Assembly: GCA_035388825.1 (NCBI GenBank)
Contig: DAOOQQ010000016.1
Span: forward strand, 12,334 to 76,333
Reading direction: 5' to 3'
DNA: 64,000 nucleotides
DNA from: Candidatus Ozemobacteraceae bacterium
GTDB taxonomy: Bacteria; Muiribacteriota; Ozemobacteria; Ozemobacterales; Ozemobacteraceae
Shown here in pieces: positions 25,181 through 64,000 of the stretch (position 1 is its first letter; each line of letters opens with the position of its first letter). A program made the position numbers and the translations under genes. The notes beneath the pieces are model-generated. The model was not told the DNA's origin, made no database searches, and saw only the letters and a program-made list of their open reading frames with translations.

Positions 25181-25253
25181 GGGGCTGTAGCTCAGCTGGG
25201 AGAGCGCTACATTCGCATTGTAGAGGCCGTCGGTTCGATCCCGATCAGCTCCA
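25181..25253 (+). tRNA. tRNA-Ala (anticodon CGC)
   Basis: Cloverleaf folded by hand. Acceptor stem GGGGCTG/CAGCTCC has the G3:U70 Ala identity pair. D-arm is GCTCAGCTGGGAGAGC. Anticodon loop TTCGCAT. T-arm GGTTCGATCC. No encoded CCA. Confidence 0.85.
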
Positions 25254-25291
25254 CTGAAGGGCAATCCACGATTGCCCACAATTATCCGAGA

Positions 25292-25317
25292 AACCCGCTG
25301 ATAAAGCGGGTTTTTTG
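25292..25317 (+). terminator. Rho-independent terminator (CCCGCT-gataa-AGCGGG plus T6) after the tRNA
   Basis: Hairpin plus U-tract seen in the sequence. Confidence 0.7.
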
Positions 25318-25419
25318 CTTTTAACCGTCCCTAATCGTCCCGTATCGTTTTTGTAAATCCGGGGGTATCTGGGGGTATTGTTGGGGGTATCGACGTATAT
25401 TCGAAGGAGCGATACCCCC

Positions 25420-26643
25420 ATGCTGACCGACCTCGCCATCCGCAAGCTCAAGGCGCCTGATAAAGCCACGAAGATCTACTTTGAAAAGGGCCTCCTCCTC
25501 CTCCATACCCCTAACGGGTCAAAACTGTGGAGGTTCAAGTATCGATACGACGGCAAAGAGAAGCTTCTGGCACTCGGCGCGTATCCTGACGTCACCCTGA
25601 AAGAAGCTGTTGAGCGGCGTGACGCCGCACGCAAACTGCTTTCCTCGGGTATCGACCCGAATGAGCACAGGAAGAGCGACAAAACGACAAAGGCCAGGAA
25701 CGCGGCAAACACGTTCGAGGCTGTCGCGCGCGAGTGGTTCGGCAGGCTTGCGCCGACCTGGGCGGAAAGTCATTCGCGAAGGGTCATGCAGTTATTCGAA
25801 CGAGATATTTTCCCCTGGCTGGGCTCTCGTCCGATCGCCGACCTCGCAACACAGCCCGACGAAATACTCCGAGTTCTTCGGCGTATCGAGGAACGCGGCG
25901 CAGTGGAGACCGCCCACAGGGCGCGGTCGATTTGCGGCGAGGTTTTTCTGTATGCCATTCCGGATCGCGCCCACCGAAATCCGTGCGACGACCTTCGGAA
26001 AAAAATCCAGCCGTCGAAGAAATCGAATTTTGCCGCGATAACAGAACCAGAAAAAATCGGCGAGCTGCTTCGGATCATGGACGGGTATAACGGCGGACTG
26101 ATCGTCCGGAGCGCTCTTCTCCTGATGCCCCTCGTCTTCGTTCGCCCCGGCGAACTCCGGCAGGCCGAATGGAAGGACATCGACCTCGACACGGCGGAGT
26201 GGCGCTACCTCGTCACGAAGACGAAGACCCATCACATCGTGCCATTATGCCGCCAGGCCGTCGAAATTCTTCAGGAACTCCACCCGGTGACCGGCAGCGG
26301 TCGATACGTTTTCCCGAGCGCCCGGTCGGCTGATCGCCCCATGAGCAACAACGCCGTTCTTGCCGCGATGCGGAGCCTGGGGATCGAGAAGCACGAAATG
26401 TGCGCACACGGTTTTCGGGCGACGGCAAGAACGCTCCTCGACGAAGTCCTGCACTACTCTCTCGACATCATCGAACATCAACTCGCGCACAATGTTCGCG
26501 ATCCCCTCGGTCGGGCTTATAACAGAACGACCCACCTCCCAGAGCGCAAACGTATGATGCAGGAGTGGGGAGACTACCTTGATAATCTGAAAAGCGACAA
26601 CATCAAACGCACTTTCCCGAGTTTAGCTGTACACATGACATGA
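25420..26643 (+). CDS. int: Tyrosine-type site-specific integrase, P4-like (DUF4102 N-domain plus catalytic core)
   Basis: N-terminal LTDLAIRKLK…KLWRFKYR arm-binding pattern. C-terminal HGFRAT…HQLAH…Y catalytic residues. Lies directly downstream of the tRNA. Confidence 0.85.
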   Translation: MLTDLAIRKLKAPDKATKIYFEKGLLLLHTPNGSKLWRFKYRYDGKEKLLALGAYPDVTLKEAVERRDAARKLLSSGIDPNEHRKSDKTTKARNAANTFEAVAREWFGRLAPTWAESHSRRVMQLFERDIFPWLGSRPIADLATQPDEILRVLRRIEERGAVETAHRARSICGEVFLYAIPDRAHRNPCDDLRKKIQPSKKSNFAAITEPEKIGELLRIMDGYNGGLIVRSALLLMPLVFVRPGELRQAEWKDIDLDTAEWRYLVTKTKTHHIVPLCRQAVEILQELHPVTGSGRYVFPSARSADRPMSNNAVLAAMRSLGIEKHEMCAHGFRATARTLLDEVLHYSLDIIEHQLAHNVRDPLGRAYNRTTHLPERKRMMQEWGDYLDNLKSDNIKRTFPSLAVHMT

Positions 26644-28475
26644 ATTATTCTCGTAGATATTTTCAAGATTCAATAAGGTGAGAACTTCTTGATGATCTTT
26701 GTCGAACAAGTGAAGTATTCGATGCCACACCCCATCGATTCTGATCTGCGTGGCGCGAATCGCGTCGAAAAGAGTCAGAATCGAGTTCCAGGTAGGGGCA
26801 TCCGTTCGCTTGTGGCCAAGGTAGGCTACAGTCCCGCCTCGCTTGCGCAGGGACTTCCGAAGATCTCGCTGTATCAGAGCCCCTGTCAGCAGCGCCAGAA
26901 GGAAAATGAACCCCATCGCCTGAATTCGTTCAGGGGTCTTCAAAAAGATCGGCCCCATCGCCATCGGGCCTTTCAGCCAGTGAAACCCGATCTCCACCGT
27001 TTTCTGCTCTTTGTAGAGTGCCAGCATCTGAACGTCAGACATCTTGCGCCTGTCGGTGACGGTCGTCAGCAGAACGAAAAAACCATCAGGATCCAGTCCT
27101 TCTGCGGAGGTCGAACCTTGGCCCGATACATTCAATCGCACTCGCCAGATGGGCGTGGATTTGGCAGAAGCCCCCTTGGCGGGGCGGCCGGGCCTTCGTT
27201 TTTCCGGCTTTTCATCCTGAATGATATCGAAGCTCATCGAATGATACTGGGCCTTGGTGGCTTTCCATTCATGAGACACTATTTTCCTGGCATCGGCCTC
27301 GCAGGCGAACTCGCGTGCCTCCAGCTTCTGTGCCCACGTTTTCAACCGTTCTTCTTCCTTCTTTCTGGCATGAAGCCGGCCAGCCGCTTTTTGTTTCGAC
27401 AGTTGAGAAGAGTAGACGGCCATCACCCGAAGCCACACCGAGCGGCCGGGCTTCCCCGGTTCCTCGATCAGCACGGGAATGTCCCAGCTTGCTCCACGAT
27501 ACTCCTCGCCCTCCTCGGTAGCTCCCAGGACGGGAAGATCCTTTTGTTTGCAGGCATGATCAATGGCTTCGGCGCGAAGATTCCATGTCTCCGGAATCAA
27601 AGTCAGAATGGGCATCTTCAGATCGGCTGCCTGCGCCATGGTTGCAATGGAGCAGAGCTTGGAATCTCCGATCATGACGGCCTCATCGGAGCGCAGATCT
27701 TCAAGCATTCCCGCCAACTGGACCATCTGCTTCCGAAACAGCTCGGGTTCGGCGGCATTTCCATTTTCAAAGTTGCCAATGAGCGGAACACCTTCTTCGG
27801 ACATGACCAGCCCCCAGACAAGCTGCAGCAAGTCTGGCCGATGATCCTTGCTGAAACCTCGTGCCGGAACTGGTGGCTGGGGCAGACCGGACAGGGGAGA
27901 CTCGGAGCCCGGGTAGGCCCCGTGCAATACGATACTGGTGAAATCCGCATGGAAGCGCTTGATCTTCAAGCCAAAGGTCTTGATCGCTGCGAAAATAACA
28001 GCGGCGTAGAGCCGAGCCGTGTTCCCATACAGCGCATCAAGCGACCAGCCCAGCCGATTATCGGTGAACTGGTCGGCGGTAAGCCCTGGATGCCGAAGAA
28101 GACCGGCAAGATCGATATCCTTCAGACGGTCGTCGACCTGGTAGAGCCGATGTTCCCTCAAAAACATAGCCAGAAGCATCGCGATAACGCTTTCCCCGTG
28201 CGAAACATGAGCCTGACCCGCGACGGGAAGTGCCTGATCGACGGTGTCCTTGATGTGCAGACGATCGAAGTAGGACATCAGCAGGGGAATCGCCCCGAGA
28301 TACTCCTGACGAGTTTCAGGGACCTGGGTGTTCGAAGCCATAGCCGCCTCCGCAGGATGGTGATGAAACCAGCCTACGGCAGAATCTCGGTTCGTACAAG
28401 TCCCTCTGAAAGCAGGATCAGAAGCCATCAAGAAAAATATCTCTCCTCAAAATCGGTACGTCGGGAAAGTGCGAT
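26605..28475 (-). mobile_element. IS1634-family (IS4 superfamily) insertion sequence, approximate boundaries
   Basis: Transposase ORF flanked by imperfect terminal inverted repeats CGCACTTTCCCGA (about 26605) and TCGGGAAAGTGCG (about 28463). The left end lies inside the 3' end of the integrase gene. Confidence 0.55.
26623..28341 (-). CDS. IS1634-family DDE transposase
   Basis: IS4/IS1634-type DDE region over its full length. GGAGG RBS before the ATG at 28341. Confidence 0.75.
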   Translation of the reverse strand: MASNTQVPETRQEYLGAIPLLMSYFDRLHIKDTVDQALPVAGQAHVSHGESVIAMLLAMFLREHRLYQVDDRLKDIDLAGLLRHPGLTADQFTDNRLGWSLDALYGNTARLYAAVIFAAIKTFGLKIKRFHADFTSIVLHGAYPGSESPLSGLPQPPVPARGFSKDHRPDLLQLVWGLVMSEEGVPLIGNFENGNAAEPELFRKQMVQLAGMLEDLRSDEAVMIGDSKLCSIATMAQAADLKMPILTLIPETWNLRAEAIDHACKQKDLPVLGATEEGEEYRGASWDIPVLIEEPGKPGRSVWLRVMAVYSSQLSKQKAAGRLHARKKEEERLKTWAQKLEAREFACEADARKIVSHEWKATKAQYHSMSFDIIQDEKPEKRRPGRPAKGASAKSTPIWRVRLNVSGQGSTSAEGLDPDGFFVLLTTVTDRRKMSDVQMLALYKEQKTVEIGFHWLKGPMAMGPIFLKTPERIQAMGFIFLLALLTGALIQRDLRKSLRKRGGTVAYLGHKRTDAPTWNSILTLFDAIRATQIRIDGVWHRILHLFDKDHQEVLTLLNLENIYENNSCHVYS

Positions 28476-29018
28476 CAAACTCGGTGTTGCTTAATAATTC
28501 AACCTAATGCCAAGCAAATACCGCCATCACTTTCATATTTTTTTAGTGCGTTCGCTATAAATTTTGAATAGACAGGACAAATGAATATTTCATATTAATA
28601 TTTTTTAAAGCCATGCGCCGTAATTTTTCAATAACTACGTCATATGCTTGGTAGCATATTATATTTGTATGAGGCTACAGTGCATTTTTTACGGCGCATC
28701 GCCGAAATTTTTATTCTAAATATTTTGTTTGACATACATATACCCAATCCGTTATACTGCGTTCGTTCCTGGACGAACTTTCATCTCTAACAGACCAGGA
28801 GCCCCCAAAAAAATGTCATGTGACGCCAGGTCGGGATTCACCTGGCCCGCCCCCTCGTTTTTGCTACCAACCACTAGCTGACACAGTCGTAACGAGCCCG
28901 CCAAAGCAGCGCCGATAACCCCCGGCAGTTTGGCGGGCTTCCTATCTTCCCCGCATGTGAATGGCGCTGAAAACGCGCCCTTGTTTTCATGGAACCTTTT
29001 CGTTCAAGGAGCAGCAGT

Positions 29019-29228
29019 ATGGAACCAACAAAACCCTGTTTCTATCGAGTATCAGACATTGTCGGCGACCCTAAAAACGGCATCCCTGGGCTTATCCCAA
29101 TCGGACGAAGCACGTGGTGGGCATGGGTAAAGCAAGGGCGCGTTAAGAAGCCAATCAAGTGGGGTCCTCGGACTTCCGCCTGGGAAGCCGAATACATCCA
29201 CACCCTGATCGAATCTTTGAAAGGATAA
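29019..29228 (+). CDS. alpA: AlpA-family phage/island transcriptional regulator (excisionase-like HTH)
   Basis: IGRSTWWAWVKQGRVKKPIKWGPRTSAW matches the AlpA signature closely. Confidence 0.8.
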   Translation: MEPTKPCFYRVSDIVGDPKNGIPGLIPIGRSTWWAWVKQGRVKKPIKWGPRTSAWEAEYIHTLIESLKG

Positions 29229-29293: not shown

Positions 29294-29567
29294 TTATGCA
29301 ACCTTTTTTCTGTAAATTTCCTCTTCCGGTGTAAGTGAATGAATCGTCTCGACATCCAAATAGTGAGGACTATTTATCCAATCCTCGTGCGTTTCGATCA
29401 GAAGAGCTGCTATCAGCCTGATTGCCGACTCTTCGTTTGGAAATATCGAGACGACCCGCGTTCGTCTTCTGAGTTCACGGTTGAAGCGTTCGACGACGTT
29501 CGACGTTCGAAGCCGCTTCCAAAGCTTTCGGGGAAACGAAAAATACGTCAGGGCCTGGTCGATGTTG
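29294..29567 (-). pseudogene. IS256-family transposase C-terminal fragment
   Basis: …TSNVVERFNRELRRRTRVVSIFPNEESAIRLIAALLIETHEDW… matches the IS256 transposase C-terminus. Truncated by the IS3 element inserted at 29568. Confidence 0.7.
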
Positions 29568-29627
29568 TGAAGTGGACCCGGTTTGGTGGACACTTTTTCG
29601 CTTATGATTGAGAAGGAGGTGTCCCCC

Positions 29628-29942
29628 ATGCCCAAGACTCGCCCCCCATATCCACCGGAATTCCGCCAGCAGCTCGTAGACCTCGTTCTGGCCGGTCGGA
29701 GTCCAGAAGACCTGGCCAAGGAGTTCGAACCGTCGGCGGTGACGATTCGTAACTGGGTCGTCCAAGCCAAACGCGACGGAGCAAAGTCGCCATCGGGTCT
29801 GAGTTTGTCCGAGCGCGATGAGCTGACCCGGCTGCGACGTGAAAACAAGCGACTTCGCGTTGAACGAGATATCTTGTCAAAAGCAGCTGCCTGGTTCGCT
29901 CGGGAGACGAATTCGATCCCCGACAAATCTTCGAATTCGTAA
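29628..29942 (+). CDS. IS3-family transposase OrfA (HTH)
   Basis: PEFRQQLVDLV…leucine-zipper region typical of IS3 OrfA. GGAGG RBS. Confidence 0.8.
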   Translation: MPKTRPPYPPEFRQQLVDLVLAGRSPEDLAKEFEPSAVTIRNWVVQAKRDGAKSPSGLSLSERDELTRLRRENKRLRVERDILSKAAAWFARETNSIPDKSSNS

Positions 29943-29956
29943 AGGCGCACCAGGAA

Positions 29957-30787
29957 ATGTATCCGATCGCTACCATGTGTCGCCTGCTGCGCGTCTCCAC
30001 CAGCGGCTACTATGCGTGGATCAATCGCCCGCCTTCCGCTCGCTCTTTGCGCGATCATGAACTGACTGCTCGCATTTGTAAGATTCACGAGGGCTCTCGC
30101 GAGACCTATGGCCGACTGCGAATCCATGCGGAATTGATGACTGAAGGGACACGCATTGGCGGAAAACGTGTTGCTCGGCTGATGCGAGAAGCCGGCATCC
30201 AGGGGGTTACTCGTCGCAAGGCGTGTCGAACGACGATTCGAGGGCGCGCTCCGCACATGATTCCCGATCTCGTCGATCGGAAGTTTGTTGCAGACGGTCC
30301 CAATCGCCTTTGGGTCGCAGACATCACCTACATCCCCACTTGGGCAGGTTTTCTCTTCCTGGCAGTCGTTCTCGACGCCTTCTCCAGGAAGATCATCGGC
30401 TGGGCGATGGAGGGCAACTTGCGCACTGAACTCGTGTTGCAAGCTTTGAACATGGCTCTTCACCAACGCAGACCAACGGAGGTCGTTCATCATTCCGATC
30501 AAGGCTGCCAATACACCTCAATCGCCTTCGGAAATCGTTGCAAGGAAGCGGGTGTCCGCCCTTCAACGGGATCGGTCGGTGATTGCTTCGACAATGCGAT
30601 GTGCGAGAGTTTCTTCGCAACACTGGAGTGCGAACTTCTCGTACGCCGCCGGTTCAAGACGCAATCCGAAGCACGAATGGCCGTCTTCGAATTCATCGAA
30701 GGCTGGTATAATCCCAGAAGACGGCATTCCGGTTTGGACTATTGCTCCCCCGTGGAATACGAAAGACGGCACACACAGGCTGCATGA
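29957..30787 (+). CDS. IS3-family transposase OrfB (DDE integrase core). Probably made as an OrfAB fusion by -1 frameshift.
   Basis: …KAHQEMYPIATMCRLL… and the DDE(35)E core …HHSDQGCQYTS…NAMCESFF…. Confidence 0.8.
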   Translation: MYPIATMCRLLRVSTSGYYAWINRPPSARSLRDHELTARICKIHEGSRETYGRLRIHAELMTEGTRIGGKRVARLMREAGIQGVTRRKACRTTIRGRAPHMIPDLVDRKFVADGPNRLWVADITYIPTWAGFLFLAVVLDAFSRKIIGWAMEGNLRTELVLQALNMALHQRRPTEVVHHSDQGCQYTSIAFGNRCKEAGVRPSTGSVGDCFDNAMCESFFATLECELLVRRRFKTQSEARMAVFEFIEGWYNPRRRHSGLDYCSPVEYERRHTQAA

Positions 30788-30905
30788 TGACGAAAGTCCC
30801 GAACCGTCCACTAAACCGGGTCCACTTCAGACCACTGGTAATGAGGGTTAGCCTGGCGTGCGGATCCAATGCTCTGACCATCGGCGTAACCACCGCCCAT
30901 GCCTG

Positions 30906-31115
30906 TCACGCCATCACATCCTTAACAAGCCCTGGAACTGCCTGCCTTGTGACGGAAGGCTCCAGGGCGTTCTTGAACAATCGTTCGAGAAAGCCCATGC
31001 TATCTCCTTCTTGCATCCCAAGTGGCAATCGGGGTCGATACGAATCGATCACCCGTTCCAAGGGAATCATTTCGAGAACGTCAGGCGGAAGAGAGGAATT
31101 TCCCAGGATTCGCAG
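30906..31115 (-). pseudogene. IS256-family transposase internal fragment
   Basis: …PLGMQEGDSMGFLERLFKNALE…PGLVKDV resembles the central region of IS256 Tpase (…GFMIQSGESEETWTTFFEYLKERGL…VISDAHKGL). Out of phase with fragment 29294-29567. Confidence 0.45.
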
Positions 31116-34100
31116 AGAAGTTGCGATTTCCCGGCAGGATCTGTATCCTCGCGATGCCGGCGGACGATCGCGTGGCACTTTGCCTCGATGACATGTCGTC
31201 CATCCATTTTCTGCGGGAGGGATTCTGCCGCACGCTTCGACAAGTGGCAAACCTCGATGCCGTCGACGAATATCCCGTTGTTTTTCAGGTTGCCCGGGTG
31301 CTCGTAAGACATCGTATTCATGACCTGTGCAATCTGCTCATGGGCATTCGAACGACCGGCAAACGAGAGATAAACGTCAGACATGCCCATTTCCCAGACT
31401 CTGATGTCGGGAAGGTTGTCATGGATGCTTTCTGATCGGGTTTCCGTCTTCGTATGTGAAAATATTTCATGTGCAATACTTCCTGGCGCATCCGTGCCGA
31501 TGATGGAAAGGGCGTTTTGTGCGCGCGACATGGCGACGTATGCCACCCGATGGCTATCCGGGCCGGCCTTCAGGCCTTCCGGGACGACCACGACAGCCGG
31601 GAACTCCAGTCCCTTCGAGGCGTGCATCGTCGACAGGGTGATCCGGCCGGGCCGCTTCAACATTCCCATACGCTTCTCTCGGCTCACGTCATGCATGAAC
31701 GAAACGAACTGCGTCGGGCTCGGCGAGGCGGTTTCCTCGAGATAATCCTCCACGAGCTGATCGATCAATTCTTCCCACGGATTGCCCGCCCCACCCCTCG
31801 ATAACCGGCCCTGCCCGACCAGCTCACGAAATCCCGCCTGCCTCATTTCCCGCTCGGGCTGGCTCTCCATATATTGTATGAGATGATATATTTCGCGCAC
31901 GTTCAGCAGGGGAACTTCAGGCCGCCTGATGCAATGAGTCGCGAATCCACGGGTTTCGAGCAGATACTTCACCCTGAAAAGATCATCGTTTGCGAATGTA
32001 AGAATTGCAATGTCCTCAGGCGCAAACCCGTCCTTGCGAAGCCGCTCGACCTCGGCGAGAACCTCGCCAAACACCTGTGCAGGCCCGGCAACCCTGATGA
32101 CGGACGGACGGCGGCTGTTCTCAGGAACCAGCATCCCAGCTTTCGCCGAAACCAATTTCTCGTTTGCCTTCATGCGGCCGGGAAGCCGCCGGATGAACTC
32201 CTCGCAAAAACTGGTGATCGGCTCGGATGACCGGTAATTGGTCAGCAGGCGATGGACCGCGGGCTTGTAATCCGCTTCGAACCGCCGAATGAACTTCACG
32301 TCCGACCCTTTCCACTCGTAAATGTTCTGATCGTCGTCGCCGACCGCCAGAAGGCGCACTTCCCGTTCTGCATCGGGTTCGTCCTTGCGCGAAAGAAGGG
32401 CCAGCATCCGGTATTCGTCTTCGTCGATATCCTGGTATTCGTCGGCAAGAATGTACCGCACCCGGCTCAAAAGCCCTTCCGTCATGGAATCGCGGTCCTC
32501 GCCCGTCACCGACTCCAGGGCGCTCACGGCGTCTTTCATGATGGTCTTCATCAGGTCCTCGCGTCGCGTCGCCCTGTCCCCTCCGGCCTGAGCCGCCAGC
32601 GACCGGCTCGCGATGCGCAGGGCCAGGCCGTGGTAGGTGCTTACGAAAATGTACTGGCTGTCGTTGCCGAGCAGTTCGCGCAGGCGTTTGCGTATTTCGA
32701 GAACCGTCGAGCGGTTGAACGCGACCACGAGAACGCCGCCCCGAGGCACCCGCTCAACGCGCACAAGCCAGGCGGCACGATGAACCAGCGACTTCGTTTT
32801 CCCGCTTCCCGGCCCCGCCAAAATCAGAATGTTCCTCGTCTTGCCTTCGGTCACGATCGCCCGTTGCGCGTCCGACAGGGAATACTCAGGCCTGTGACCT
32901 TCCTGCAGCGCCTTCCCGGTAATCCTGGCGAGGCTTTCCTCGCCGGTCGGATACTGAAGCAGTTCCTTTCGCCGGTGGAAGTAGCGATCGTAGAACTCCT
33001 GCCGCGAGAGCGAGAAATACTCCTTCACCATCGTCATCGCGCTCCGGATGTCGCTTTTCCCGAACTCGGCATACTTCCCCATCACGTGCACCTGGGCGAT
33101 CTTCTCGTCGAAGAAATCATCGAGAGACCGGCACTCGCCGGCAGCCGGGGGGCGGTCATCCTTGAGTTTCAGCGTCAACGCAGGCCGGAACACCGAGAGC
33201 CCGTTCTGGATATGGAGCGCGTGCGTCTCGTTCAGCGACAGAAGCACCCTCCTGACGGCGTTGAAACTCTCGGACGACGTTCGCGGTGGGTCTTTCACCG
33301 GCAGGAGATTCTCGAGTTCGTCGACGGTGAACTCGACGCGTTGTTCCCGGCCCTGCCTGTTGCATCGTTTTCTGAGCAGGTCGAGATACCCACTGCCGAT
33401 CTTCTGGCGGTAGGGAATCATGCTCCGGATCTCCCCCGGGCTCATGCTCCGCTTCAGCCGGCAACGGTCATACCCCTGCGACACGAATGTCACAAGACCG
33501 TCGCGCCGCCAGATTTTCAGAACGGGGAACAGGTCTTTCGCTCGCACGTTCTCGAACGACCGGTCTGCGGAAAGCTGCGTCGCGCACAAGCGCAGGTCGA
33601 GTGTGCTGCCGTCCTCGTCCCCCCATGCCTCCGTTTCGGCAAGCATGTCGAGGATGCGGCTTTCGATACGGCAGAATGAATCCCAGCGGGACACGGCATC
33701 GTCCTTCTCGTCCGGCAGGTTGTTGAAAAGTGCCGTGCAGTTGATGGAGTGTGAAATCAGTCCGACGTTCCGCATCTCCCGCAGGGTCGAAATGAGATTC
33801 TCGGTCGACTGGCCGAGCTGGACGGTCATCGCGTCGGTGTTCAGCAGGTCATCGGCGTTCGCGTTGTAGAGGTGCCGGATAAGACGCCCCCACTGTGCCT
33901 GCCTGTATTCCGTCAAGCCAAGCTTTCGAATGATCTCCAGCGCGGCATCCAGGGTCGGCGGCACAGGCTTCGCCTCGATCACGGAGGTGCGGTTCCACGA
34001 GCGTTCGAGCCGGTTGAGCTTTTCGAGCCAGGAAATGGCGATCTTGACCTTGGTGTCTGCCATCGGTTCCGATGCATCGATTTTATCGGTGGTGGTCTCT

Positions 34101-51925: not shown

Positions 51926-51931
51926 AGTTTT

Positions 51932-58007: not shown

Positions 58008-58600
58008 CGATCTTCTGGACGAGGTTGTCGGGTATGTGAGGGCGCACCGCGATGAACTGCTGGAGGTGTGGAAAAAATGGCACTGATGAAACGGCCAAGA
58101 CTGACGGCCATCAAGGCGATGCCGAATTTCAAAATGCGCCTGACTTTCCTGAACGGGGCAACCTACGTCGTCGACTTTCTTCCGCTTTTCGAGGAATCGA
58201 AAGGGCTTGCCCCTTTGCGCAATCAGAAGGCATTCGCCGACGCCATGATGGACGAATGGGGCTGGGAGATCGAATGGCCGGCGTTCGACATTCAGATCGG
58301 CGCCGACACCCTCTGGATGGACGCTCAGGCGCAGGCCGCGAAAGATCCCGCGACCCGCGACTTCATCATGTGGCGGGCGAGGAACGGCCTTTCCCTTGCC
58401 GACGCAGCCCGGGCCCTTGGCATCACGTCGCGAACCGTCTCGGCCTACGGCACGGGCGAAAGGCCGGTCCCGCTCTACATCACCCTTGCCTGCAAAGGCT
58501 GGGAGGCCGAACGCCAGCCAGGACACAAAAAAGCGGCCTGATTACATATCAGCCTGGGCCGTCGTTTACCGGCATCGTATGCAAAGCCGTGTCAGAGGCG
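58008..58600 (+). repeat. Direct repeat copy 2 (3' fragment of DUF4160 gene plus complete DUF2442-HTH gene)
   Basis: Aligned by hand to 52077-52670. Confidence 0.7.
58068..58541 (+). CDS. DUF2442 domain protein fused to XRE-like HTH (copy 2, identical protein to 52138-52611)
   Basis: Identical 157-aa translation in the ORF track. Confidence 0.55.
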   Translation: MEKMALMKRPRLTAIKAMPNFKMRLTFLNGATYVVDFLPLFEESKGLAPLRNQKAFADAMMDEWGWEIEWPAFDIQIGADTLWMDAQAQAAKDPATRDFIMWRARNGLSLADAARALGITSRTVSAYGTGERPVPLYITLACKGWEAERQPGHKKAA

Positions 58601-58721: not shown

Positions 58722-59969
58722 TCAATTTCCGCTCGAATCGCTGGTTAGCTGTTTCTTTTTCGAGTTTACCCTTGTAATTACCTGGATGACACCCTGGGTA
58801 GTTTGCTTTTCTCCAGATATTGCATCAGCAGACTGTTTCTCGAATTCGGCAGAATTAAAGTCCCCGCCGATCTGGTCAATAATCTCTGCATAAATTGCCT
58901 GACACAAGTGAGGGAAGAATGACTCCTCATTTTTCTTTTCCACAAAATTCTCCAGATCGTTATCTTCGCCAAATTGTCGTTGCTCGCCGAGATTCTTCTT
59001 TGCATTGTTTACGAGGTTGATTACCTGGCAATATGGATTCTTCTCATCCTGGAAGAACTTCTTCTCGAAACCATTCAGGACGGAAACGATCTTTTCATTC
59101 AAAAAAGTATCCCGATACCCAGCCTGAACACGAAGATGGTTCCTGGGCCGGGCTACAATGCTGATTGATGAATCAAAAGCGAATGTATCGTCTTCTTCGC
59201 GAAACAATCGGACTTTCAAGACGCCAATTCCATTGTCATTGGCAAAGTCAATTGCGTCCTCATCAAGTTCGGTTTCTCGCTCCTCAAATACATCAAAAAC
59301 AACCAGCCATTTTTCATTTGCCCAGCTTCCATTGATTGCAGTTTCCGCCAGCGCAGAGAGTAGTTCTCCGCGAATCAACGGGCCGCACTTCAATTCAATT
59401 GATGACAGAACCCAGTTGGGGAGGTTGTCAACCGACTGAATTAATCTGCCTATTTCTGGATTCGCAAAAGCTTTTTTAAATTCATTCTCGCGAACCATTA
59501 TCATATCAGGATTTGCCCACTTTTGATTCGATTGCTTGGGCGGAAGCGACAGAACTTTAGCCTCAAATTTCCTTTCCAATACTATTGAAGCTGGCAGATG
59601 CAAGAACGCTTCCCAGTTTTCCCGTTCTTCTTGATTCGTTTGTTCAGAAGGTTTCTTTCCTCTTTTCAGTTTTCCATCCTTGCCTTCCCCCTCAGTTATG
59701 GAAACTCTGCTTTCGGCAATCTCGGAAAGTAACTGGTATCCCTTTTTTGGCCCAGGGTGGTGGAGTGTTCTACCTACGGCCCTTTTTAAATAGTTAATGA
59801 GATTTGTTTCAACTTGTAAATCCGACAATTCATCGGTGGTAATGCTGACTTCATTGAAAGACCTTGTGACAAGGTCAGCGATTTGGCCCGCTGAAAGATT
59901 TGAGGTCATTTTCAAAGCGAGAAGCTTCTCCAACTTTTCTTGAAGTCCCGGAAATTTCGCTTTGCTCAT
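58722..59969 (-). CDS. Hypothetical protein (415 aa, AT-rich)
   Basis: ORF only. No confident domain. Confidence 0.4.
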   Translation of the reverse strand: MSKAKFPGLQEKLEKLLALKMTSNLSAGQIADLVTRSFNEVSITTDELSDLQVETNLINYLKRAVGRTLHHPGPKKGYQLLSEIAESRVSITEGEGKDGKLKRGKKPSEQTNQEERENWEAFLHLPASIVLERKFEAKVLSLPPKQSNQKWANPDMIMVRENEFKKAFANPEIGRLIQSVDNLPNWVLSSIELKCGPLIRGELLSALAETAINGSWANEKWLVVFDVFEERETELDEDAIDFANDNGIGVLKVRLFREEDDTFAFDSSISIVARPRNHLRVQAGYRDTFLNEKIVSVLNGFEKKFFQDEKNPYCQVINLVNNAKKNLGEQRQFGEDNDLENFVEKKNEESFFPHLCQAIYAEIIDQIGGDFNSAEFEKQSADAISGEKQTTQGVIQVITRVNSKKKQLTSDSSGN

Positions 59970-60085
59970 AAAAACTCCTTAACTGTTTTTGACAGCTATG
60001 TGCGCATTCCTATAAATCCGCCCATCTGCTCCGAATGAATTCGTCCGACCTTTCGGAGCAAAGCCGCACGCCTCACGACACGAAA

Positions 60086-62251
60086 TTATTTTCTGATCCC
60101 TGGAGAGCTTAAGAACGCGATCATGCTCATATTGATGATGTCGGATCGAATATTCGGCTCGATGATTTCGCTCACATCGATTTTCGCATCGGGTCTTGGA
60201 AAGAGCTCTACAGCGGCCGCGGCAATCTCGAAAAGGTCGTCGCTCATGCCGGGTTGTGGGCAGGTGAACCAGATGATGGCGTATGCGGCTTCGGAGAGGA
60301 TTGGTTCACTGCGAATCTTTTCGAGAAGAAGGTTGCGGGTTCCAGACCATCGGAAAATGCGGAATGATGGATAGTTTCGCAATGCCGCGAACAGCTTTCC
60401 CGGATCGAGCGTCGAAACGATTTCCTCCCCCCAGCCACCTGGGAGAAGGCCATCGGCGCCCGGCAGGCGACCTCCGGCCGGTTCAGGCATCATGCAGAGA
60501 TGTGTCTCACACCCGGTTTTAGAAATCGTTTTGAATCGGGGTGGCCCTTCGAGTATGCGCATGATGACGAACGACGCAGATGGAATTCCGAACGCCTTCT
60601 TAATCTCGGCGGCCATCTTCCAGTTCCAGGTGATGTCTTCCGAGATGTCCACCGTGAAACAGGCTTTTTCGAGATCGTATCGAACGACACCGCGCGGAAT
60701 ATCCAGGGCCGTGTTCGTTTCGAGCTCGGGGAACCGGGAGATCATCGCCGGCCAGAAATCAGAGAACACGAGTTTCGATGTGAGATACTTCCCGATCGTT
60801 TTCCCGCGTCGCAGACTCGAGGAAAAGGGAATGACCTTGTTTTCGTGAATCCAGAACAGCCCCAGGCGAGGCGACCGCTTCCGTCGGGAAAGGCGGTTCA
60901 GGCGACGCTCGATTCGCGCCCATGCGCAATCGTCGAACGGCCATTTCTCGATCTTCGGCTGATACCGTTTCAACGCTTCTTCTCGCAGAACACCAGGTGT
61001 TTCGGATTCCCAGAGTTCATCGAGAAAGCCGGGAAATCGTTCATTGAACTCGGCAATGGACCTCTCAACATTCAGCAAGCCTTCCGGCAGTCTTTCGGTT
61101 TCGGGTCGATCTATCGATCGGATGGCATCGTCAAGAATCACGGCGCAGTCATCATCAAAGGCGTGGCGCATGATCGCCTCGATATATGCGGGGCCCCCGG
61201 CTTCCTTCAGCCGCCCGGTTTGGCGCAGGCGGTCGATGACCTTGTCATACAGGAGCCACTCCTTTCGGGCGTGCATTTCCACCATCTGCCCGAACAGCGT
61301 CTTGTGCTCGGGAATCATGAATCGTTCCGGCGTGAGTTTCGAAAACACCTTCTCCTTCAGCTCCGACAGATGCCCGCCGTCGGAGAGCAGCACTCCGAGC
61401 AGGAGAGCCTCCTCCTCCCGTGGCGGAGTCCGAATCTCCTCCGGGCAAGCGGTATCGAAGAAAAAGATCCCGTCACATTCGATAACATCTGCAGCATCAC
61501 CGGCATAGACGCCCATGCCGACGTCAAGCTCGACAGAGTCATCATCTAAATACCTTACGATATCTTTGCAGAACTCATCGGCGCGAGGTTGCAATTCCCG
61601 TTCCGAAAAGTGCAGGAATACGGATCCGGAAGAAGCCTTTCTATAGTTACAATGACACTTCATCGAATGAAGATCGGCGTATCGCCCCGTCCAGGTGATG
61701 ACCTTATACGCAGGATATGATTCAAGTTTCTTCAGCAGACGTTCATGGGAGAATCTGAAGATTTCCTCAGACGCGCGTCGCATGGTGAAACCGTTGTTTC
61801 TCCCCTTTTTCACGGTGAGCCTCGGCGTTTCGATGGTTCGCAGCCGGGGAATGACGACAGATCGTGCCGGGATATGGAATCGCCGCCTGATCACAGCGAT
61901 CAGCGCCCTGTTCGAAAGAATTTCGGCCGGTGCGACGATCTCGAATGCCCCGTTCACCAGCTCAAAGGTGACGTAGCCGTCGCACATCCCCTGCCCCTCT
62001 TGCCGGCGAAGCTCCGGGAAACGCTGAATCACCCTTCTCTGGTGCTCCGCGAGAGAGTTCATGGCGAGCAGCCAGATGTGATCCTGCTCCGTTTTGTCGA
62101 GGCTGACGGTCTGGATGAAGATGTTCCCCCGATACACGACGAAATGCCCGAGCCGGGGCATCGGCGTCAGGGAGAGCAGGAACTTCAGCCGCTTTTCGAT
62201 ACGGTCCCATTGTTTCTCGTCGTGGAGCCAATCATGCCGGTAGAGTTTCAT
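60086..62251 (-). CDS. Large hypothetical protein with an internally duplicated about 130-aa module flanking a DnaB-helicase-N-terminal-like domain
   Basis: Residues about 1-130 and about 440-570 align (KLYRHDWLHDEKQWDRIEKRLKFL…PRLGHFVVY vs KRYQPKIEKWPFDDCAWARIERRLNRL…PRLGLFWIH). The central EALLLGVLLSDGGHLSELKEKVFSKLTPERFMIPEHKTLFGQMVEMHARKEWLLYDKVIDRLRQTGRLKEAGGPAYIEAI resembles DnaB_N. Confidence 0.45.
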   Translation of the reverse strand: MKLYRHDWLHDEKQWDRIEKRLKFLLSLTPMPRLGHFVVYRGNIFIQTVSLDKTEQDHIWLLAMNSLAEHQRRVIQRFPELRRQEGQGMCDGYVTFELVNGAFEIVAPAEILSNRALIAVIRRRFHIPARSVVIPRLRTIETPRLTVKKGRNNGFTMRRASEEIFRFSHERLLKKLESYPAYKVITWTGRYADLHSMKCHCNYRKASSGSVFLHFSERELQPRADEFCKDIVRYLDDDSVELDVGMGVYAGDAADVIECDGIFFFDTACPEEIRTPPREEEALLLGVLLSDGGHLSELKEKVFSKLTPERFMIPEHKTLFGQMVEMHARKEWLLYDKVIDRLRQTGRLKEAGGPAYIEAIMRHAFDDDCAVILDDAIRSIDRPETERLPEGLLNVERSIAEFNERFPGFLDELWESETPGVLREEALKRYQPKIEKWPFDDCAWARIERRLNRLSRRKRSPRLGLFWIHENKVIPFSSSLRRGKTIGKYLTSKLVFSDFWPAMISRFPELETNTALDIPRGVVRYDLEKACFTVDISEDITWNWKMAAEIKKAFGIPSASFVIMRILEGPPRFKTISKTGCETHLCMMPEPAGGRLPGADGLLPGGWGEEIVSTLDPGKLFAALRNYPSFRIFRWSGTRNLLLEKIRSEPILSEAAYAIIWFTCPQPGMSDDLFEIAAAAVELFPRPDAKIDVSEIIEPNIRSDIINMSMIAFLSSPGIRK

Positions 62252-62322
62252 TCAGGCACCCTCCTTTCCATTATCTGCCGTGCGAGGAACTGGCGCGTCG
62301 ATACGGGCAGATGTGCGAATCA

Positions 62323-62832
62323 TCATGGTTGCCCCCTCTCGGCAGGCGGTTCGTTCCGGGGGTCTGCAACCATAAGCCGTGCAGAAAACTCTTCCTTCCT
62401 GAAATGTTTTACAAAACGGCCGCAGCAAAAATCAGACAGGATGATCTTCCGTTTCGCAAAGAAGAATTCCCAGGCTTCATCGGCTATCGCGTCATCGGAT
62501 TGCGGGTCGCGAAGGTCGTATATATCGCGGCTCTCAAAGTGGACCCAGAGCCCGCTGCCGGCTTTCCAGAAAAGCGCACACCAGTCCTTCCCATAATATG
62601 TATCGTTCAATATGTATGTCCAGTGAAAATGTCGGCAATAGCCATGCGTTTCGAGAAGTCGCGTGATTCTGCACGGGTGATCGATATGGCGGAGATGCTC
62701 GAGCGGATCAGTTCCGATCATCGTGTTGGAAAAGCGCTCGGGTTCGGATTTCCGAATTGCCAGTTCGAGACTTTCGGGAAAGGGGAAATGCTTCCTGATA
62801 AACGCCTCGCGCCTGCGTTTGTATTCGTTCAT
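62323..62832 (-). CDS. Hypothetical protein (partner gene downstream of REC-like paralog C)
   Basis: ORF with GGAAGGGAAG RBS. Cys/His/Trp-rich. No domain recognised. Confidence 0.35.
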   Translation of the reverse strand: MNEYKRRREAFIRKHFPFPESLELAIRKSEPERFSNTMIGTDPLEHLRHIDHPCRITRLLETHGYCRHFHWTYILNDTYYGKDWCALFWKAGSGLWVHFESRDIYDLRDPQSDDAIADEAWEFFFAKRKIILSDFCCGRFVKHFRKEEFSARLMVADPRNEPPAERGQP

Positions 62833-62849
62833 TCCGCTTCCCTTCCTTC

Positions 62850-63260
62850 TCATTTTATGCCCAGGGCTTCGAGAGCACGGTCTTTCCAGATGGTCTGGAT
62901 CCAGTCGTCGGGGTAAAGAAGTTCGGATTTCACCCAGATGACGTTCCACCCGTGCCGGGCAAGACGTTGCTTCATGACAAGCGCGCCCACCTCGTTCGAC
63001 GTGTGAATCATCACCGGGCAGAAGGGCGCCAGAAGATTCAGGAAGTCGACGACGAAACAGCCGCAGGCGATTCCGAGGTTGCCGCAGGGGGTCTCGTGGG
63101 GTTGCAGGTCGTGGTCCAACGAGAGAAGCTGAATCATCGTGCGATGGGAATGAAGGTATGCGACAGCCTCGAACGCGTCATTTCTAACGGCAATATCCAG
63201 ACCCAGGTCTGCAAACTGGCGAATCCGGGTTTCACTGTCTTCAAGAAGAAAGATGCCCAT
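62850..63260 (-). CDS. Small stand-alone CheY-like protein with Cys cluster, paralog C
   Basis: IFLLEDSETRI…LLSLDHDL…CGNLGIACGCFVVD…FCPVMIHTSNE…WNVIWVKSE…PDDWI. About 60% identical to paralog A. Confidence 0.55.
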   Translation of the reverse strand: MGIFLLEDSETRIRQFADLGLDIAVRNDAFEAVAYLHSHRTMIQLLSLDHDLQPHETPCGNLGIACGCFVVDFLNLLAPFCPVMIHTSNEVGALVMKQRLARHGWNVIWVKSELLYPDDWIQTIWKDRALEALGIK

Positions 63261-63391
63261 GTGGTTGCTACCTGCCTTTCTTCGATATTTCAAGCCGACA
63301 TTTTCCCGCCCCGATGCCGAATGTTCTACAATCAACACCGCTTTTCTGACGTATATGTCGAACGAAATGCTCGCCAGTCAGGCCGGTCTGG

Positions 63392-63985
63392 TCACGTCGT
63401 GCAGTTTCTGAATACCCCCGGGGGAATTTCACGGCCTTTATAGGAAAGCATCATGGGGGGAATCGATTTGGCGGCGGCTTCGAAGGGCCCGATGAAACGT
63501 CCATCGGTGTCGAATTTCATGCCGTTGTCGTATGTCTGCTGGTATCGATAGCCGGTGATCTTCCCGAAGGTGATGATCACGCCCTTGCTCGATTCATAGT
63601 GGCGGCGGATGATTTCGCCGATTTCTTCATGGCTCATGTTCTCCGACCTGACGGGGACGAAGCGCATAGAGGGAGCACCAGAGACGATAGCGGCAAAAAT
63701 CGGGGAAGGAATCGTACGTTCGGTCTCGACAAACAGGTGGGGCTGAAACTCAGCTCGTGCTTTCGCGATCCGTGCGGCGATCTCCTGTTTACAATCGCGT
63801 TCGAGCTCCTCGACCACCTTTCGGATCATTATATTCGGCTCGAGATGCAACGCCACGGCGATACGACACAGCAGGTCTTCTCCTTTATCGACACCGGCGA
63901 GAAACTTTTCGATGCGGCGGATCCCTTTCGCCGAATTCCTGTATCCGAGGGCGCGTGAAAAGGGTCCGCGTCCGTCTCGTTTCAC
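63392..63985 (-). CDS. Hypothetical protein; N-terminal RALGYRNSAKGIRRIEKFLAG module paralogous to ORF 49456-49743
   Basis: Shared N-terminal motif. Rest unknown. Confidence 0.4.
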   Translation of the reverse strand: MKRDGRGPFSRALGYRNSAKGIRRIEKFLAGVDKGEDLLCRIAVALHLEPNIMIRKVVEELERDCKQEIAARIAKARAEFQPHLFVETERTIPSPIFAAIVSGAPSMRFVPVRSENMSHEEIGEIIRRHYESSKGVIITFGKITGYRYQQTYDNGMKFDTDGRFIGPFEAAAKSIPPMMLSYKGREIPPGVFRNCTT

Positions 63986-64000
63986 GGCTTGCCCGACCAG

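Follow-up and report, generated by a model that had tools for sequence, protein, structure and literature searches.

At least 39 kb of foreign, patchwork DNA adjoined a tRNA-Ala gene in the window (the whole 64,000-nt stretch of DNA that was analysed) from an uncultured Candidatus Ozemobacteraceae bacterium of anaerobic digesters, a member of a lineage related to Riflebacteria. This DNA carried an integrase gene, insertion sequences and anti-phage genes, and the evidence supports its reading as an ordinary tRNA-linked defence island that is mosaic, remodelled and possibly immobile. The island probably arose when a P4/CP4-57-type integrase recombined an element site-specifically into the 3′ end of tRNA-Ala(CGC), and it was remodelled thereafter. 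What is new is that an AAA/phosphoesterase operon and a set of repeated small-gene cassettes, both recognized in a preliminary description of this DNA but listed there as separate, belong to one recurrent neighbourhood.

The tRNA gene, the integrase and the composition of the island

The tRNA-Ala(CGC) gene, located on the forward strand at nt 25181–25254 and presumed to lie at the attL side, was detected by both ARAGORN and Rfam. It was followed by a terminator-like hairpin (CCCGCT-GATAA-AGCGGG and then T6, nt 25294–25316, forward strand), which was seen by reading the sequence and was absent from the list of a simple scan. The gene for a tyrosine integrase of 407 aa (nt 25420–26643) begins 165 nt past the end of the tRNA gene (nt 25254) on the same strand, an arrangement common to six independent assemblies. 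The predicted protein possessed the Pfam domains Arm-DNA-bind_3, Phage_int_M and Phage_integrase, retained the catalytic motifs HGFR, LAH and RAYNR, and aligned from end to end with IntA of Escherichia coli CP4-57 (32% identity, E = 2e-64); its last 11 or so codons come from the end of an IS1634 element. The tRNA gene, the terminator and a P4-type integrase beside them, as given in the preliminary description, were thus all borne out.

In E. coli CP4-57 the gene order is ssrA-intA-yfjH-alpA-yfjI. Like CP4-57, the island encoded an integrase with the same domain set, alignable over its full length, directly after a small RNA gene and in the same orientation, and some kb further on had a small gene behind an AT-rich promoter region. 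The latter region (nt 28476–29018, forward strand; composition and repeat scan) had a GC content of 0.345 over nt 28476–28800, a short inverted repeat (nt 28610–28623 and 28689–28702), in line with the AT-rich control region noted earlier, and a promoter-like site (nt 28729–28758). The small gene (nt 29019–29228, forward strand) encoded 69 aa and was situated where AlpA would be expected. However, it resembled AlpA by eye only, with no match in Pfam, NCBIfam or PDB and an E value of 0.42 in BLASTP against E. coli AlpA, and its earlier naming as an AlpA regulator was not confirmed; no verifiable excisionase or AlpA was found in the island. Further differences from P4 and CP4-57 islands were the lack of a P4 alpha/DUF3987-type primase, the replacement of the int tail by an IS end, and, relative to CP4-57, the Riflebacteria-related host. 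A repeat of the 3′ end of the tRNA gene (16–30 nt, at most 3 mismatches), which would mark attR, was absent from the window, in agreement with the preliminary description, and also from a 3.8-kb extension into which the search was carried downstream as that description had proposed; the far end of the island lies beyond this sequence.

An abrupt shift in GC and gene content at the tRNA gene had been pointed out before, and the change in composition was confirmed. The GC content was 0.631 at nt 1–25180 versus 0.537 at nt 25255–64000, the standard deviation of GC in 1-kb windows was 0.038 in the core versus 0.068 in the island, and GC3 ranged from 0.71 to 0.90 in core genes versus 0.39 to 0.82 in island genes. 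Codon usage was far from uniform within the island: GC3 was 0.39–0.45 in five genes (those for the MmeI-type and GmrSD-like proteins, g187, g415 and g210), lowest in the GmrSD-like gene (0.39) and the MmeI gene (0.40), and highest in AAA1 and g97 (0.81–0.82). The tetranucleotide correlation to the core dropped to -0.05 at 36–40 kb, versus 0.94–0.96 for the helicase and AAA1/AAA2/MPE blocks. These two blocks are near-host in composition and are therefore old, derived from close relatives, or native. At least six compositional blocks were present in the island.

Cargo genes, insertion sequences and repeats

Defence islands and hotspots can reportedly be carried by integrative elements (Makarova et al. 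2011; Rousset et al. 2022). Like these, the region described here was mosaic in composition and brought restriction and conflict genes together with an integrase, insertion sequences and pairs resembling toxin-antitoxin systems; it differed in that no more than one or two of its cargo systems matched types catalogued in PADLOC, and its largest cargo blocks were uncatalogued. The preliminary description had spoken of multiple restriction or defence genes. Judged from sequence, the MmeI-type enzyme and, less surely, the GmrSD-like gene can be assigned to established defence types, and the other cargo genes are candidates.

The gene at nt 37063–39786 (forward strand; Pfam, PADLOC and motifs) encoded a Type IIL/IIG restriction-modification enzyme of the MmeI family with 907 aa. 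Like MmeI, the predicted enzyme combined all five Pfam MmeI domains with a D-x9-E-x-K nuclease motif (D69...E79-x-K81) and an NPPF methyltransferase motif, and it scored 992 bits against PADLOC REase_MTase_IIG over the full model; the Type IIL assignment made earlier therefore stands for a complete enzyme with its catalytic motifs, in which one chain unites an N-terminal nuclease, a helicase-like spacer, a gamma-class N6A methyltransferase, a TRD and a C-terminal domain. Such a single-chain enzyme should cleave DNA that lacks its modification, at a constant distance from the recognition site. The gene at nt 52922–54664 (forward strand) encoded a 580-aa protein with, at its N-terminus, a GmrSD_N (DUF262) domain (Pfam, 95.5 bits versus a cutoff of 33.2), as in GmrSD, BrxU and SspE, the DUF262-DUF1524 Type IV enzymes; its best full-length match in PADLOC was the candidate HEC-05 (79 bits). 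The C-terminus contained D-H-H-x-x-P...N...N (DDHHIYP...N...N), which resembles a His-Me finger, but, unlike GmrSD, BrxU and SspE, it did not match the DUF1524/GmrSD_C profile at E ≤ 0.1. Of the Type IV GmrSD enzyme proposed before, the DUF262 domain was thus confirmed, whereas the nuclease is recognizable at the level of motifs. The protein is probably a modification-dependent nuclease.

The largest cargo protein, with 1697 aa (nt 31067–36160, reverse strand; Pfam, PADLOC, AlphaFold2 and Foldseek), had been described as a helicase-exonuclease and is indeed a DEDD exonuclease fold joined to two helicases, one RecQ-like and the other UvrD-like. A DEDD/DnaQ-like exonuclease (aa 1 to about 150) was followed by a RecQ/DpdF-like SF2 helicase (aa 294–650), an uncharacterised linker of about 450 aa, a UvrD-like SF1 helicase (aa 1095–1555) and an uncharacterised C-terminus of 140 aa. 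The exonuclease fold (AlphaFold2 pLDDT 83), in which D16, E18, D74 and D128 were invariant, matched DinG-exo, PolB-exo, TREX1-like and Cap18 structures in Foldseek, and only 7 homologues of this N-terminal domain were found, mostly fragments. WRN is likewise an exonuclease and a RecQ helicase in one protein. The fusion resembled DinG and WRN in having an N-terminal DEDD exonuclease ahead of a RecQ-family helicase core, and its best Foldseek matches were structures of DinG, the Staphylococcus aureus protein with an N-terminal DnaQ-like exonuclease; it differed from both in its additional UvrD-type helicase and about 590 aa of uncharacterised sequence. Assignment to Hhe, GajB (Gabija), DpdF (Dpd) or PsyrTA was rejected, as the PADLOC matches were limited to the helicase cores (DpdF-like at aa 294–646, GajB-like at aa 1096–1558). 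The N-terminal, linker and C-terminal segments matched no PADLOC model, which sets the fusion apart from Hhe, Gabija and Dpd at the profile level, and the island gene list contained no neighbouring gene for GajA, a Dpd protein or PsyrA.

Downstream of the MmeI gene, a 370-aa zincin (nt 40212–41324, forward strand) was present as described before, with a weak profile match to M78/ImmA-IrrE and a HELAH motif at residue 271. A gene for an uncharacterised 197-aa protein (nt 41392–41985, reverse strand) lay just ahead of that for a LysR-type regulator (nt 42161–43042, forward strand; Pfam).

Five insertion-sequence families were supported by NCBIfam: IS1634, IS3, IS5, a remnant of IS256 and, beyond the window, IS21; the four calls made earlier within the window were all right. 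The IS1634-family element (nt 26606–28475, reverse strand; transposase at nt 26623–28341, 219 bits versus a cutoff of 100) had terminal inverted repeats (CGCACTTTCCCGA) at about nt 26606–26620 and 28461–28475. The IS256-family transposase (nt 29369–29566, reverse strand), of which the C-terminal 60 aa or so were present, was considered a remnant because the match covers only positions 279–337 of the model; it is cut by the insertion of an IS3-family element (nt 29563–30834, forward strand) with 29-nt inverted repeats, orfA at nt 29628–29942 and orfB at nt 29957–30787 (331 bits versus a cutoff of 160). The IS5-family element (nt 55321–56231, forward strand) was 911 bp long with 23-nt inverted repeats and a transposase gene at nt 55343–56092 (115 bits versus a cutoff of 110).

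The gene pair for DUF4160 and DUF2442 proteins (nt 51932–52611, forward strand) lay mostly inside the first copy of a direct repeat, made up of 131 bp at nt 51889–52019 and 578 bp at nt 52077–52654. The 131-bp part recurred at nt 54824–54954 (forward strand, 95% identity). The toxin-antitoxin remnant of the preliminary description is thus a repeat remnant, derived from the 5′ region of the DUF4160 gene of this pair. The second copy of the 578-bp part (nt 58007–58584, forward strand, 97.4% identity) contained a DUF2442 gene (nt 58077–58541) whose product was 100% identical to that of the first copy. Two low-GC orphan genes on the forward strand, g97b (nt 56882–57175) and g187 (nt 57422–57985), sit within an insertion of about 3 kb that splits the second DUF4160/DUF2442 copy.

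The AAA+/cREC neighbourhood

The AAA/phosphoesterase operon was present as described, on the forward strand, and consisted of genes for two double-AAA+ ATPases, AAA1 (nt 43871–46066) and AAA2 (nt 46063–48375), which were paralogous (39% identity), and a calcineurin-like metallophosphoesterase, MPE (nt 48372–48938), with overlapping start and stop codons throughout nt 43871–48938. Ahead of it lay g97 (nt 43349–43642, forward strand), encoding a 97-aa HTH protein similar to the N-terminus of WYL regulators; homologues of g97 (64–67% identity) adjoin an AAA+ gene in two other loci (L020 and L025). The operon continued on the same strand with g167 (nt 48956–49459), g89 (nt 49474–49743), g210 (nt 49740–50372) and cREC137 (nt 50425–50838), and cREC144 (nt 51444–51878) followed, likewise on the forward strand, with g188 (nt 50833–51399) in the opposite orientation between the two cREC genes. 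A second module on the reverse strand (nt 58722–64000) comprised g415 (nt 58722–59969), g721 (nt 60086–62251), g169 (nt 62323–62832), cREC136 (nt 62850–63260) and g230 (nt 63392 to beyond the window end). The repeated small-gene cassettes of the preliminary description correspond to these cREC genes and their neighbours. Scores against the cREC profile (PF20274, cutoff 27) were 35.8 for cREC137, 27.3 for cREC144 and 36.5 for cREC177, which lies beyond the window, and cREC136 was 57% identical to cREC137. Acidic pocket residues were kept in four standalone cREC proteins, and a Pfam search found no histidine kinase in the island to partner them. The g167-domain protein had a confidently predicted fold with no PDB match. 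The g721 protein combined a DnaB_N domain with a g167-like domain, contained an internal duplication and was almost an ORFan: 1.8 billion cluster representatives yielded only two genuine relatives.

The same gene set, in different order, occurred in another Ozemobacteraceae locus (L025), more distantly in L026 and partly in L018, where the phosphoesterase member is a PTP instead of the calcineurin-like protein found here. The closest AAA2 homologues (57–61% identity) belonged to another Ozemobacteraceae locus with its own IS21. Elsewhere, AAA+ homologues adjoin RtcR or sigma54 activators, ADP-ribosylglycohydrolase, CinA and PTP phosphatases, while ClpP, M41 or SprT-like proteases pair with more distant members of the AAA+ family. 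The operon was also considered as IetAS and this was rejected, since the IetA match (PADLOC, 119–129 bits over about 130–175 residues) lay in the second AAA domain only and no protease is encoded in the operon. These findings indicate an uncharacterised neighbourhood of WYL-type HTH, paired double-AAA+, cREC, g167-domain and DnaB_N proteins that recurs in other genomes.

In the parts of the accounts by Iyer et al. 2021/2022 considered here (PMC7824862, PMC9503650), cREC occurs in RtcR- or WYL-regulated neighbourhoods for RNA repair and NAD/ADPr processing. Like those, the four cREC genes of this island share their surroundings with genes for a phosphoesterase and an HTH protein of WYL type; unlike in those parts, no RNA ligase, KptA, sirtuin, Nudix or Macro gene was present, and the constant partners here (the double-AAA+ pair, the DnaB_N protein and the g167-domain protein) are absent from the same parts. 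A tentative reading is that the operon and the cassettes represent a single multi-gene system not described before, present here as two incomplete copies in inverted orientation; its members may be g97, the paralogous Cdc48-like double-AAA+ ATPases, one to several cREC proteins, a phosphoesterase, the g167-domain protein, g721 and the g231 family. In such a system, a sensor of the WYL, RtcR or sigma54 type might detect RNA fragments or nucleotide signals bearing cyclic phosphates, the cREC and phosphoesterase proteins might then process such RNA ends or signals, and the AAA+ pair might unfold or strip a protein target. By this scheme, the system could serve as a response to RNA damage or in abortive infection, or else as a counter-defence module on mobile elements.

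Origin and remodelling of the island

Contigs from other metagenomes, 100% identical to the window, carry the island for at least 3.8 kb past its end, as the preliminary description had expected, and the island DNA was identical across several digester metagenomes. The extension contained cREC177, a HepT/MntA-like pair (HepT-like and NTP_transf_2 in precomputed Pfam annotation; 24 and 42 bits in NCBIfam, cutoff 60), a PD-(D/E)XK gene and then the IS21 element. The comparison with related genomes that the earlier description had proposed placed two Ozemobacteraceae (L012 and L013), distant relatives with a flank protein of 54–55% identity, beside the window. Both kept the flanking gene and tRNA-Ala(cgc) and were without the integrase and the island; DNA similarity ended about 5 nt past the 3′ end of the tRNA gene, and the genes beyond it were ordinary, none with a homologue in the window. 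Between the tRNA gene and a conserved Cache-domain gene they had different, integrase-free variable DNA of 2.1 and 5.6 kb, and the site is therefore variable in the family. Within the species itself, no strain turned up in which this site is empty, and a search for the gene expected on the right flank returned nothing from this organism. Since neither attR nor such an empty site was found, we only infer the integration.

That variable DNA in the relatives also fits an accretion hotspot, in which only the int remnant, perhaps with the AlpA-like ORF, was targeted to the tRNA, and the rest is a pile of unrelated, independent insertions and native variable genes, so that a single 40-kb mobile island perhaps never existed. 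The compositional blocks, the host-like helicase and AAA blocks, and the nearest AAA2 homologues, located at another locus of the family, point the same way. However, this explanation differs in degree only from insertion by the integrase followed by remodelling, and no second integrase or recombinase and no internal att-like repeats occurred in the 42.6 kb seen; we regard it as rather unlikely. It is considerably less probable that the core, tRNA and int were joined to unrelated island DNA through multi-copy insertion sequences during assembly, with the cargo not beside the tRNA at all. Contigs from four other metagenomes all end inside the IS1634 element (nt 26640–27627), others in IS3, the IS256 remnant or the 578-bp repeat, and only one assembly (NODE_281) runs through IS1634 and connects int and the core with the remainder; yet an integrase must come with an element, and just past the IS the DNA has the look of the regulatory region to be expected there, small HTH-like gene included. 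Moreover, contig Ga0209717_1002268, judging by its length and range, appears to span IS3 independently, and continuity over the 578-bp repeat is backed by a 79.2-kb NCBI contig on which g721, AAA1 and AAA2 are recorded together, provided that it is a separate assembly. The near-host GC3 and tetranucleotide usage of two large blocks could suggest native chromosomal DNA with gene-specific bias and a stray integrase remnant, but the five low-GC3 genes fall far below the core range, five insertion sequences are present and the region is missing from the tRNA locus of both relatives, which makes this highly improbable.

In the preferred reading, insertion by the integrase, the recombinase would have placed an element at the tRNA 3′ end and piecemeal rebuilding would have followed: IS1634 would have entered the final int codons, IS3 would have interrupted IS256, blocks of very different composition would have joined, and IS5 together with about 2 kb of low-GC DNA would have split the duplicated DUF4160/DUF2442 pair, which brackets the GmrSD-like gene. 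The island is now probably fixed or crippled, and its cargo would consist mostly of conflict genes.

The island itself is routine, being another tRNA-linked, IS-riddled defence island in the poorly sampled Ca. Ozemobacteraceae, and its usefulness lies in the range of candidate conflict genes that it brings together. These include the exonuclease-RecQ-UvrD giant, which is rare and has few relatives, the near-orphan DnaB_N protein g721, and the recurrent neighbourhood of AAA+, cREC, phosphoesterase and WYL-HTH genes, which would place the cREC domain, as yet uncharacterised by experiment, in a testable genetic context.

Probable boundary of the island at tRNA-Ala(CGC)

The sole tRNA in the window according to both ARAGORN and Rfam, tRNA-Ala(CGC) (containing GGTTCGATCCCGATCAGCTCCA; nt 25181–25254, plus strand), is preceded by a promoter-like site (nt 25139–25167) and followed by a hairpin read in the sequence, CCCGCT-GATAA-AGCGGG and then six T residues (nt 25294–25316); the Rfam scan of the window returned nothing besides the tRNA, and no CRISPR or tandem arrays were found in it. 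GC content was 0.631 over nt 1–25180 (the core) versus 0.537 over nt 25255–64000 (the island), and its standard deviation in 1-kb windows approximately doubled, from 0.038 to 0.068. GC3 was 0.71 to 0.90 in eight core genes; in the island it spanned 0.39 to 0.82, the low values belonging to the genes for the GmrSD-like (0.39) and MmeI-type (0.40) enzymes and to g187, g210, g415 and g97b (0.41 to 0.45; island proteins are named by their size in amino acids), and the high values (0.74 to 0.82) to those for the giant helicase, the double-AAA+ ATPases AAA1 and AAA2, the metallophosphoesterase MPE, and g97. Tetranucleotide correlation to the core was -0.05 at 36–40 kb and 0.15 at 56–60 kb, and reached 0.94 to 0.96 at 32–36 and 44–48 kb. 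Composition is therefore not uniform in GC or codon usage, a uniformity that would have refuted the preliminary description, and the term mosaic, used in the preliminary description along with a compositional shift at the tRNA, is quantitatively justified. The core has a low-GC patch of its own at nt 16000–18000 (0.525 versus about 0.63), between a TrkA gene and a PAS sensor gene, which may be a small separate insertion; an 88-aa gene within it (approximately nt 16861–17127, plus strand) has a weak MazE-antitoxin match.

The gene adjoining the tRNA (nt 23868–25028, minus strand; 74% GC) encodes a 386-aa protein without Pfam or NCBIfam match. The nearest genomes by this flanking gene are labelled Candidatus Ozemobacteraceae bacterium, as are the window's own proteins in NCBI, and in two of these genomes, the distant relatives L012 and L013, it is kept beside a tRNA-Ala(cgc) at the same place (54% to 55% identity), with syntenic core-side neighbours (49% to 92% identity). 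The tRNA of L013 is exactly that of the window; the L012 copy (nt 3954–4027) differs at two positions, tentatively read as a T-A pair of the anticodon stem replaced by G-C. Past the tRNA, both genomes encode the same Cache-domain protein, preceded in L012 by an AbiEi-like gene and a glutathione peroxidase and in L013 by genes for an M48 peptidase, a CHASE2 protein and a DUF6242 protein. No integrase follows the tRNA in either genome, and the window contains no homologue of any of these genes. When the DNA was aligned, the tRNA and its promoter were conserved and similarity stopped about 5 nt past the tRNA, which fits an island boundary near nt 25260. Comparison of these loci also shows that the site downstream of tRNA-Ala is variable across the family.

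The proposed integration at this tRNA was supported by the comparison with related genomes insofar as L012 and L013 lack both integrase and island; a same-species empty site was not found, all contigs with the exact flank protein also carrying the integrase. The partial tRNA copy expected at the far end (attR), already sought without success in the window by the preliminary description, was likewise not recovered by the suggested direct-repeat search: fuzzy matching of 16–30 nt of the tRNA 3′-end to the window and to loci L001–L005 returned the tRNA itself only. Nor was the right flank found when an alignment of the relatives' Cache-domain gene was scanned against JGI metagenomes, the scan giving one unrelated 3.4-kb locus (L021) that had no tRNA.

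Left end and predicted defence cargo

The first island gene (nt 25420–26643) encodes a 407-aa protein with Arm-DNA-bind_3, Phage_int_M and Phage_integrase domains and the motifs HGFR, LAH and RAYNR, of which residues 2–395 align with E. coli CP4-57 IntA (32% identity, E = 2e-64), as expected of the P4-like integrase recognized earlier. An IS1634-family element with inverted CGCACTTTCCCGA ends (approximately nt 26606–28475; transposase 219 bits versus a cutoff of 100) starts within the last approximately 11 codons of this gene; therefore, the conserved regions are intact and the tail is foreign. The subsequent AT-rich stretch (GC 0.345) contains a short inverted repeat and a promoter-like site near consensus, TTGACA-18-TATACT, in agreement with the control region described there. 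The AlpA regulator proposed to follow it could not be verified: the 69-aa ORF at nt 29019–29228, AlpA-like by eye, had no match in Pfam (E ≤ 0.5), NCBIfam or a phmmer search of PDB, and only E = 0.42 with E. coli AlpA by BLASTP. A C-terminal fragment of an IS256 transposase (nt 29369–29566) then abuts an IS3 element (nt 29563–30834), whose inverted repeats are 29 nt long and which lacks a clear target duplication; with an IS5 element (nt 55321–56231), all four families named previously are present, IS256 as a fragment.

The cargo begins with a minus-strand gene (nt 31067–36160) for a 1697-aa protein with two helicase cores, a RecQ/DpdF-like SF2 core at residues 294–650 and a UvrD-like SF1 core at residues 1095–1555. 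Sequence searches found nothing for its N-terminal 295 residues, and PDB sequence searches with the N- and C-terminal parts gave no match. Among seven homologues, D16, E18, H68-N69, D74, D94-T95, N123 and D128 of the N-terminal domain are invariant, forming a DEDD pattern. An AlphaFold2 model of this domain (pLDDT 83) gave fold matches (probability as high as 1.0, E = 4e-3 to 0.2) to exonuclease domains, namely those of S. aureus DinG, family-B polymerases, a TREX1 homologue, Cap18, EXD2 and oligoribonuclease. At the level of fold and motif, these features support its designation as a putative helicase-exonuclease. Assignment to a defence system catalogued in PADLOC was rejected, the three non-helicase segments having matched nothing there.

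The second, low-GC block starts with an enzyme (nt 37063–39786) containing all five MmeI Pfam domains, matching the PADLOC IIG model over its full length (992 bits) and possessing the motifs D69...E79-x-K81 and NPPF, so that its reading as a Type IIL restriction-modification enzyme was confirmed. The adjacent 370-aa protein, described as a zincin peptidase, does have an HELAH motif; its M78 match is weak. A 197-aa gene and a LysR regulator follow. In the fourth block, a DUF4160/DUF2442 pair precedes a 580-aa DUF262 protein, for which the GmrSD Type IV assignment was partly supported, by the GmrSD_N domain (95 bits) and by a match to HEC-05 that spans the full length but is weak; the C-terminus shows a DDHHIYP...N...N motif but gave no match to the DUF1524 profile.

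Downstream of this GmrSD-like gene lie, in order, 131 bp left over from the 5′-region of DUF4160, the IS5 element, two orphan genes of low GC and a second copy of DUF2442. Thus, the gene is bracketed by a duplicated pair, the second copy of which is broken by a 3-kb insertion. The second DUF2442 lies inside a 578-bp direct repeat (nt 52077–52654 and 58007–58584, 97.4% identical), whose copies bracket the GmrSD-like gene, IS5 and the two orphan genes, and at which other assemblies break. The 5.9-kb segment could be lost or exchanged through homologous recombination of one copy with the other.

The AAA+/cREC modules

Module A, the third cargo block, runs on the plus strand from g97, with an HTH like the N-terminus of WYL regulators (PADLOC, 2e-5), through a tight operon (AAA1, AAA2, MPE, g167, g89, g210 and cREC137; nt 43871–50838) whose genes overlap or lie close together, and, after g188 on the opposite strand, ends with cREC144. 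The paralogues AAA1 and AAA2 share 39% identity across 700 residues; the 5′-part of AAA2 contains a 24-nt tandem unit of 2.2 repeats (nt 46215–46265). Module B, the fifth block, comprises g415, g721, g169, cREC136 and g230 on the minus strand and continues past the window, where cREC177 is followed by a pair weakly matching HepT/MntA, a PD-(D/E)XK protein and an IS21 element. The two modules are inverted relative to each other, with the segment of the GmrSD-like gene and IS5 between them, and are linked by cREC137 and cREC136 (57% identity), by g89 and the g231 N-terminus (46%), and by g167, which resembles residues 451–570 of g721.

Among 5.8 billion proteins, a word-indexed search with g721 returned itself only; exhaustive HMMER over 1.84 billion cluster representatives gave two real relatives and a family of small domains with no Pfam match, making it almost an ORFan. 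Its only close relative is a 388-aa DnaB_N protein of L025, an Ozemobacteraceae contig, to which both halves of g721 (residues 8–366 and 430–715) align; so g721 is an internal duplication. The g167 domain has a confidently predicted fold (pLDDT 85) without a PDB fold match, and its single match was an uncharacterised phage protein.

AAA2 has many homologues of 720–800 aa, and gene contexts were examined for six. In L025, one run contains an AAA+ gene, homologues of g97 (67%) and g231 (70%), the DnaB_N protein, a cREC (82%), a g169 homologue (63%) and a second AAA+ (61%). L026 carries a WYL gene, a four-fold DnaB_N protein, a g167-domain protein, two AAA+, a cREC and two further WYL genes; L018 (Riflebacteria) carries a sigma54 activator, AAA+, cREC, PTP, cREC, PTP and two g231-family genes. 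From these contexts and the similarities within the island, modules A and B are two pieces of one recurrent neighbourhood. The AAA/phosphoesterase operon and the repeated small-gene cassettes of the preliminary description were both found, then, but are not separate entities.

More distant family members adjoin a protease and not a cREC: L019 has RtcR, AAA+, ClpP, an ADP-ribosylglycohydrolase and CinA; L020 a sigma54 activator, AAA+, a g97 homologue (64%) and an M41 (FtsH-like) peptidase; and L027 AAA+, an SprT-like protease and an SF2 helicase. In two of these three loci, RtcR or another sigma54 activator adjoins the AAA+ gene. The changing gene contexts suggest that the double-AAA+ family may be an unfoldase with exchangeable partners. 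An IS21-family element flanks both the L025 locus (nt 205–2458) and the far end of the island (L002, nt 2–1059), with only about 30% identity between the two IstB proteins; the shared position may be coincidental, or these modules may be moved by IS21 elements. A viral origin of the AAA+/cREC module was rejected, since in IMG/VR the queries g721, AAA2 and an alignment of AAA sequences reached distant AAA+ relatives only, beside which no cREC, g97, g167 or g231 was found.

The cREC domain is predicted to act in cyclic-phosphate resolution, and its occurrence in the vicinity of WYL domains and NAD/ADPr enzymes has been pointed out (PMC7824862, PMC9503650). The AAA+ pair, DnaB_N and g167-domain partners are unmentioned in the passages on cREC in these two papers.

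Extent, formation and mobility

The window lies within ENA contig ERZ761564 NODE_281, a contig of 76,671 bp that reaches only 338 bp past the window end; identical contigs add 3.8 kb beyond the window and then stop in IS21. Since module B continues to this IS21, the island is at least 42.6 kb, extending past the window end as had been stated. Contigs 99.9% to 100% identical occur in at least four other assemblies (JGI 3300009782, 3300025855 and 3300010355; ENA ERZ27257431 and SRR4244858), each breaking at a repeat (IS1634, IS3 or what remains of IS256, or the 578-bp repeat). The individual pieces are thus reproducible, but only NODE_281 bridges the IS1634 element.

Behind what was observed (domain identities, catalytic motifs, repeats, composition, absence of the island in relatives and recurrence of the AAA+/cREC neighbourhood), the P4-type integrase would have recombined an element-borne attP with the tRNA-Ala 3′-end, regenerating the tRNA, and the cargo would then have been rebuilt by insertion sequences and recombination between repeats. 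By established knowledge of their families, the MmeI-type enzyme would restrict unmodified DNA and the DUF262 enzyme modified DNA. The exonuclease-RecQ-UvrD protein may unwind and degrade foreign or damaged DNA, and the AAA+/cREC module may respond to RNA ends bearing cyclic phosphates or to nucleotide signals. That the island is still mobile today is doubtful, because the integrase tail has been replaced, neither a verified excisionase nor attR was found, and all samples share an identical sequence. As a whole, the description as a mosaic defence island was correct, and the island is an ordinary kind of element; what goes beyond routine is its uncatalogued cargo, above all the AAA+/cREC/DnaB_N/WYL-HTH neighbourhood.
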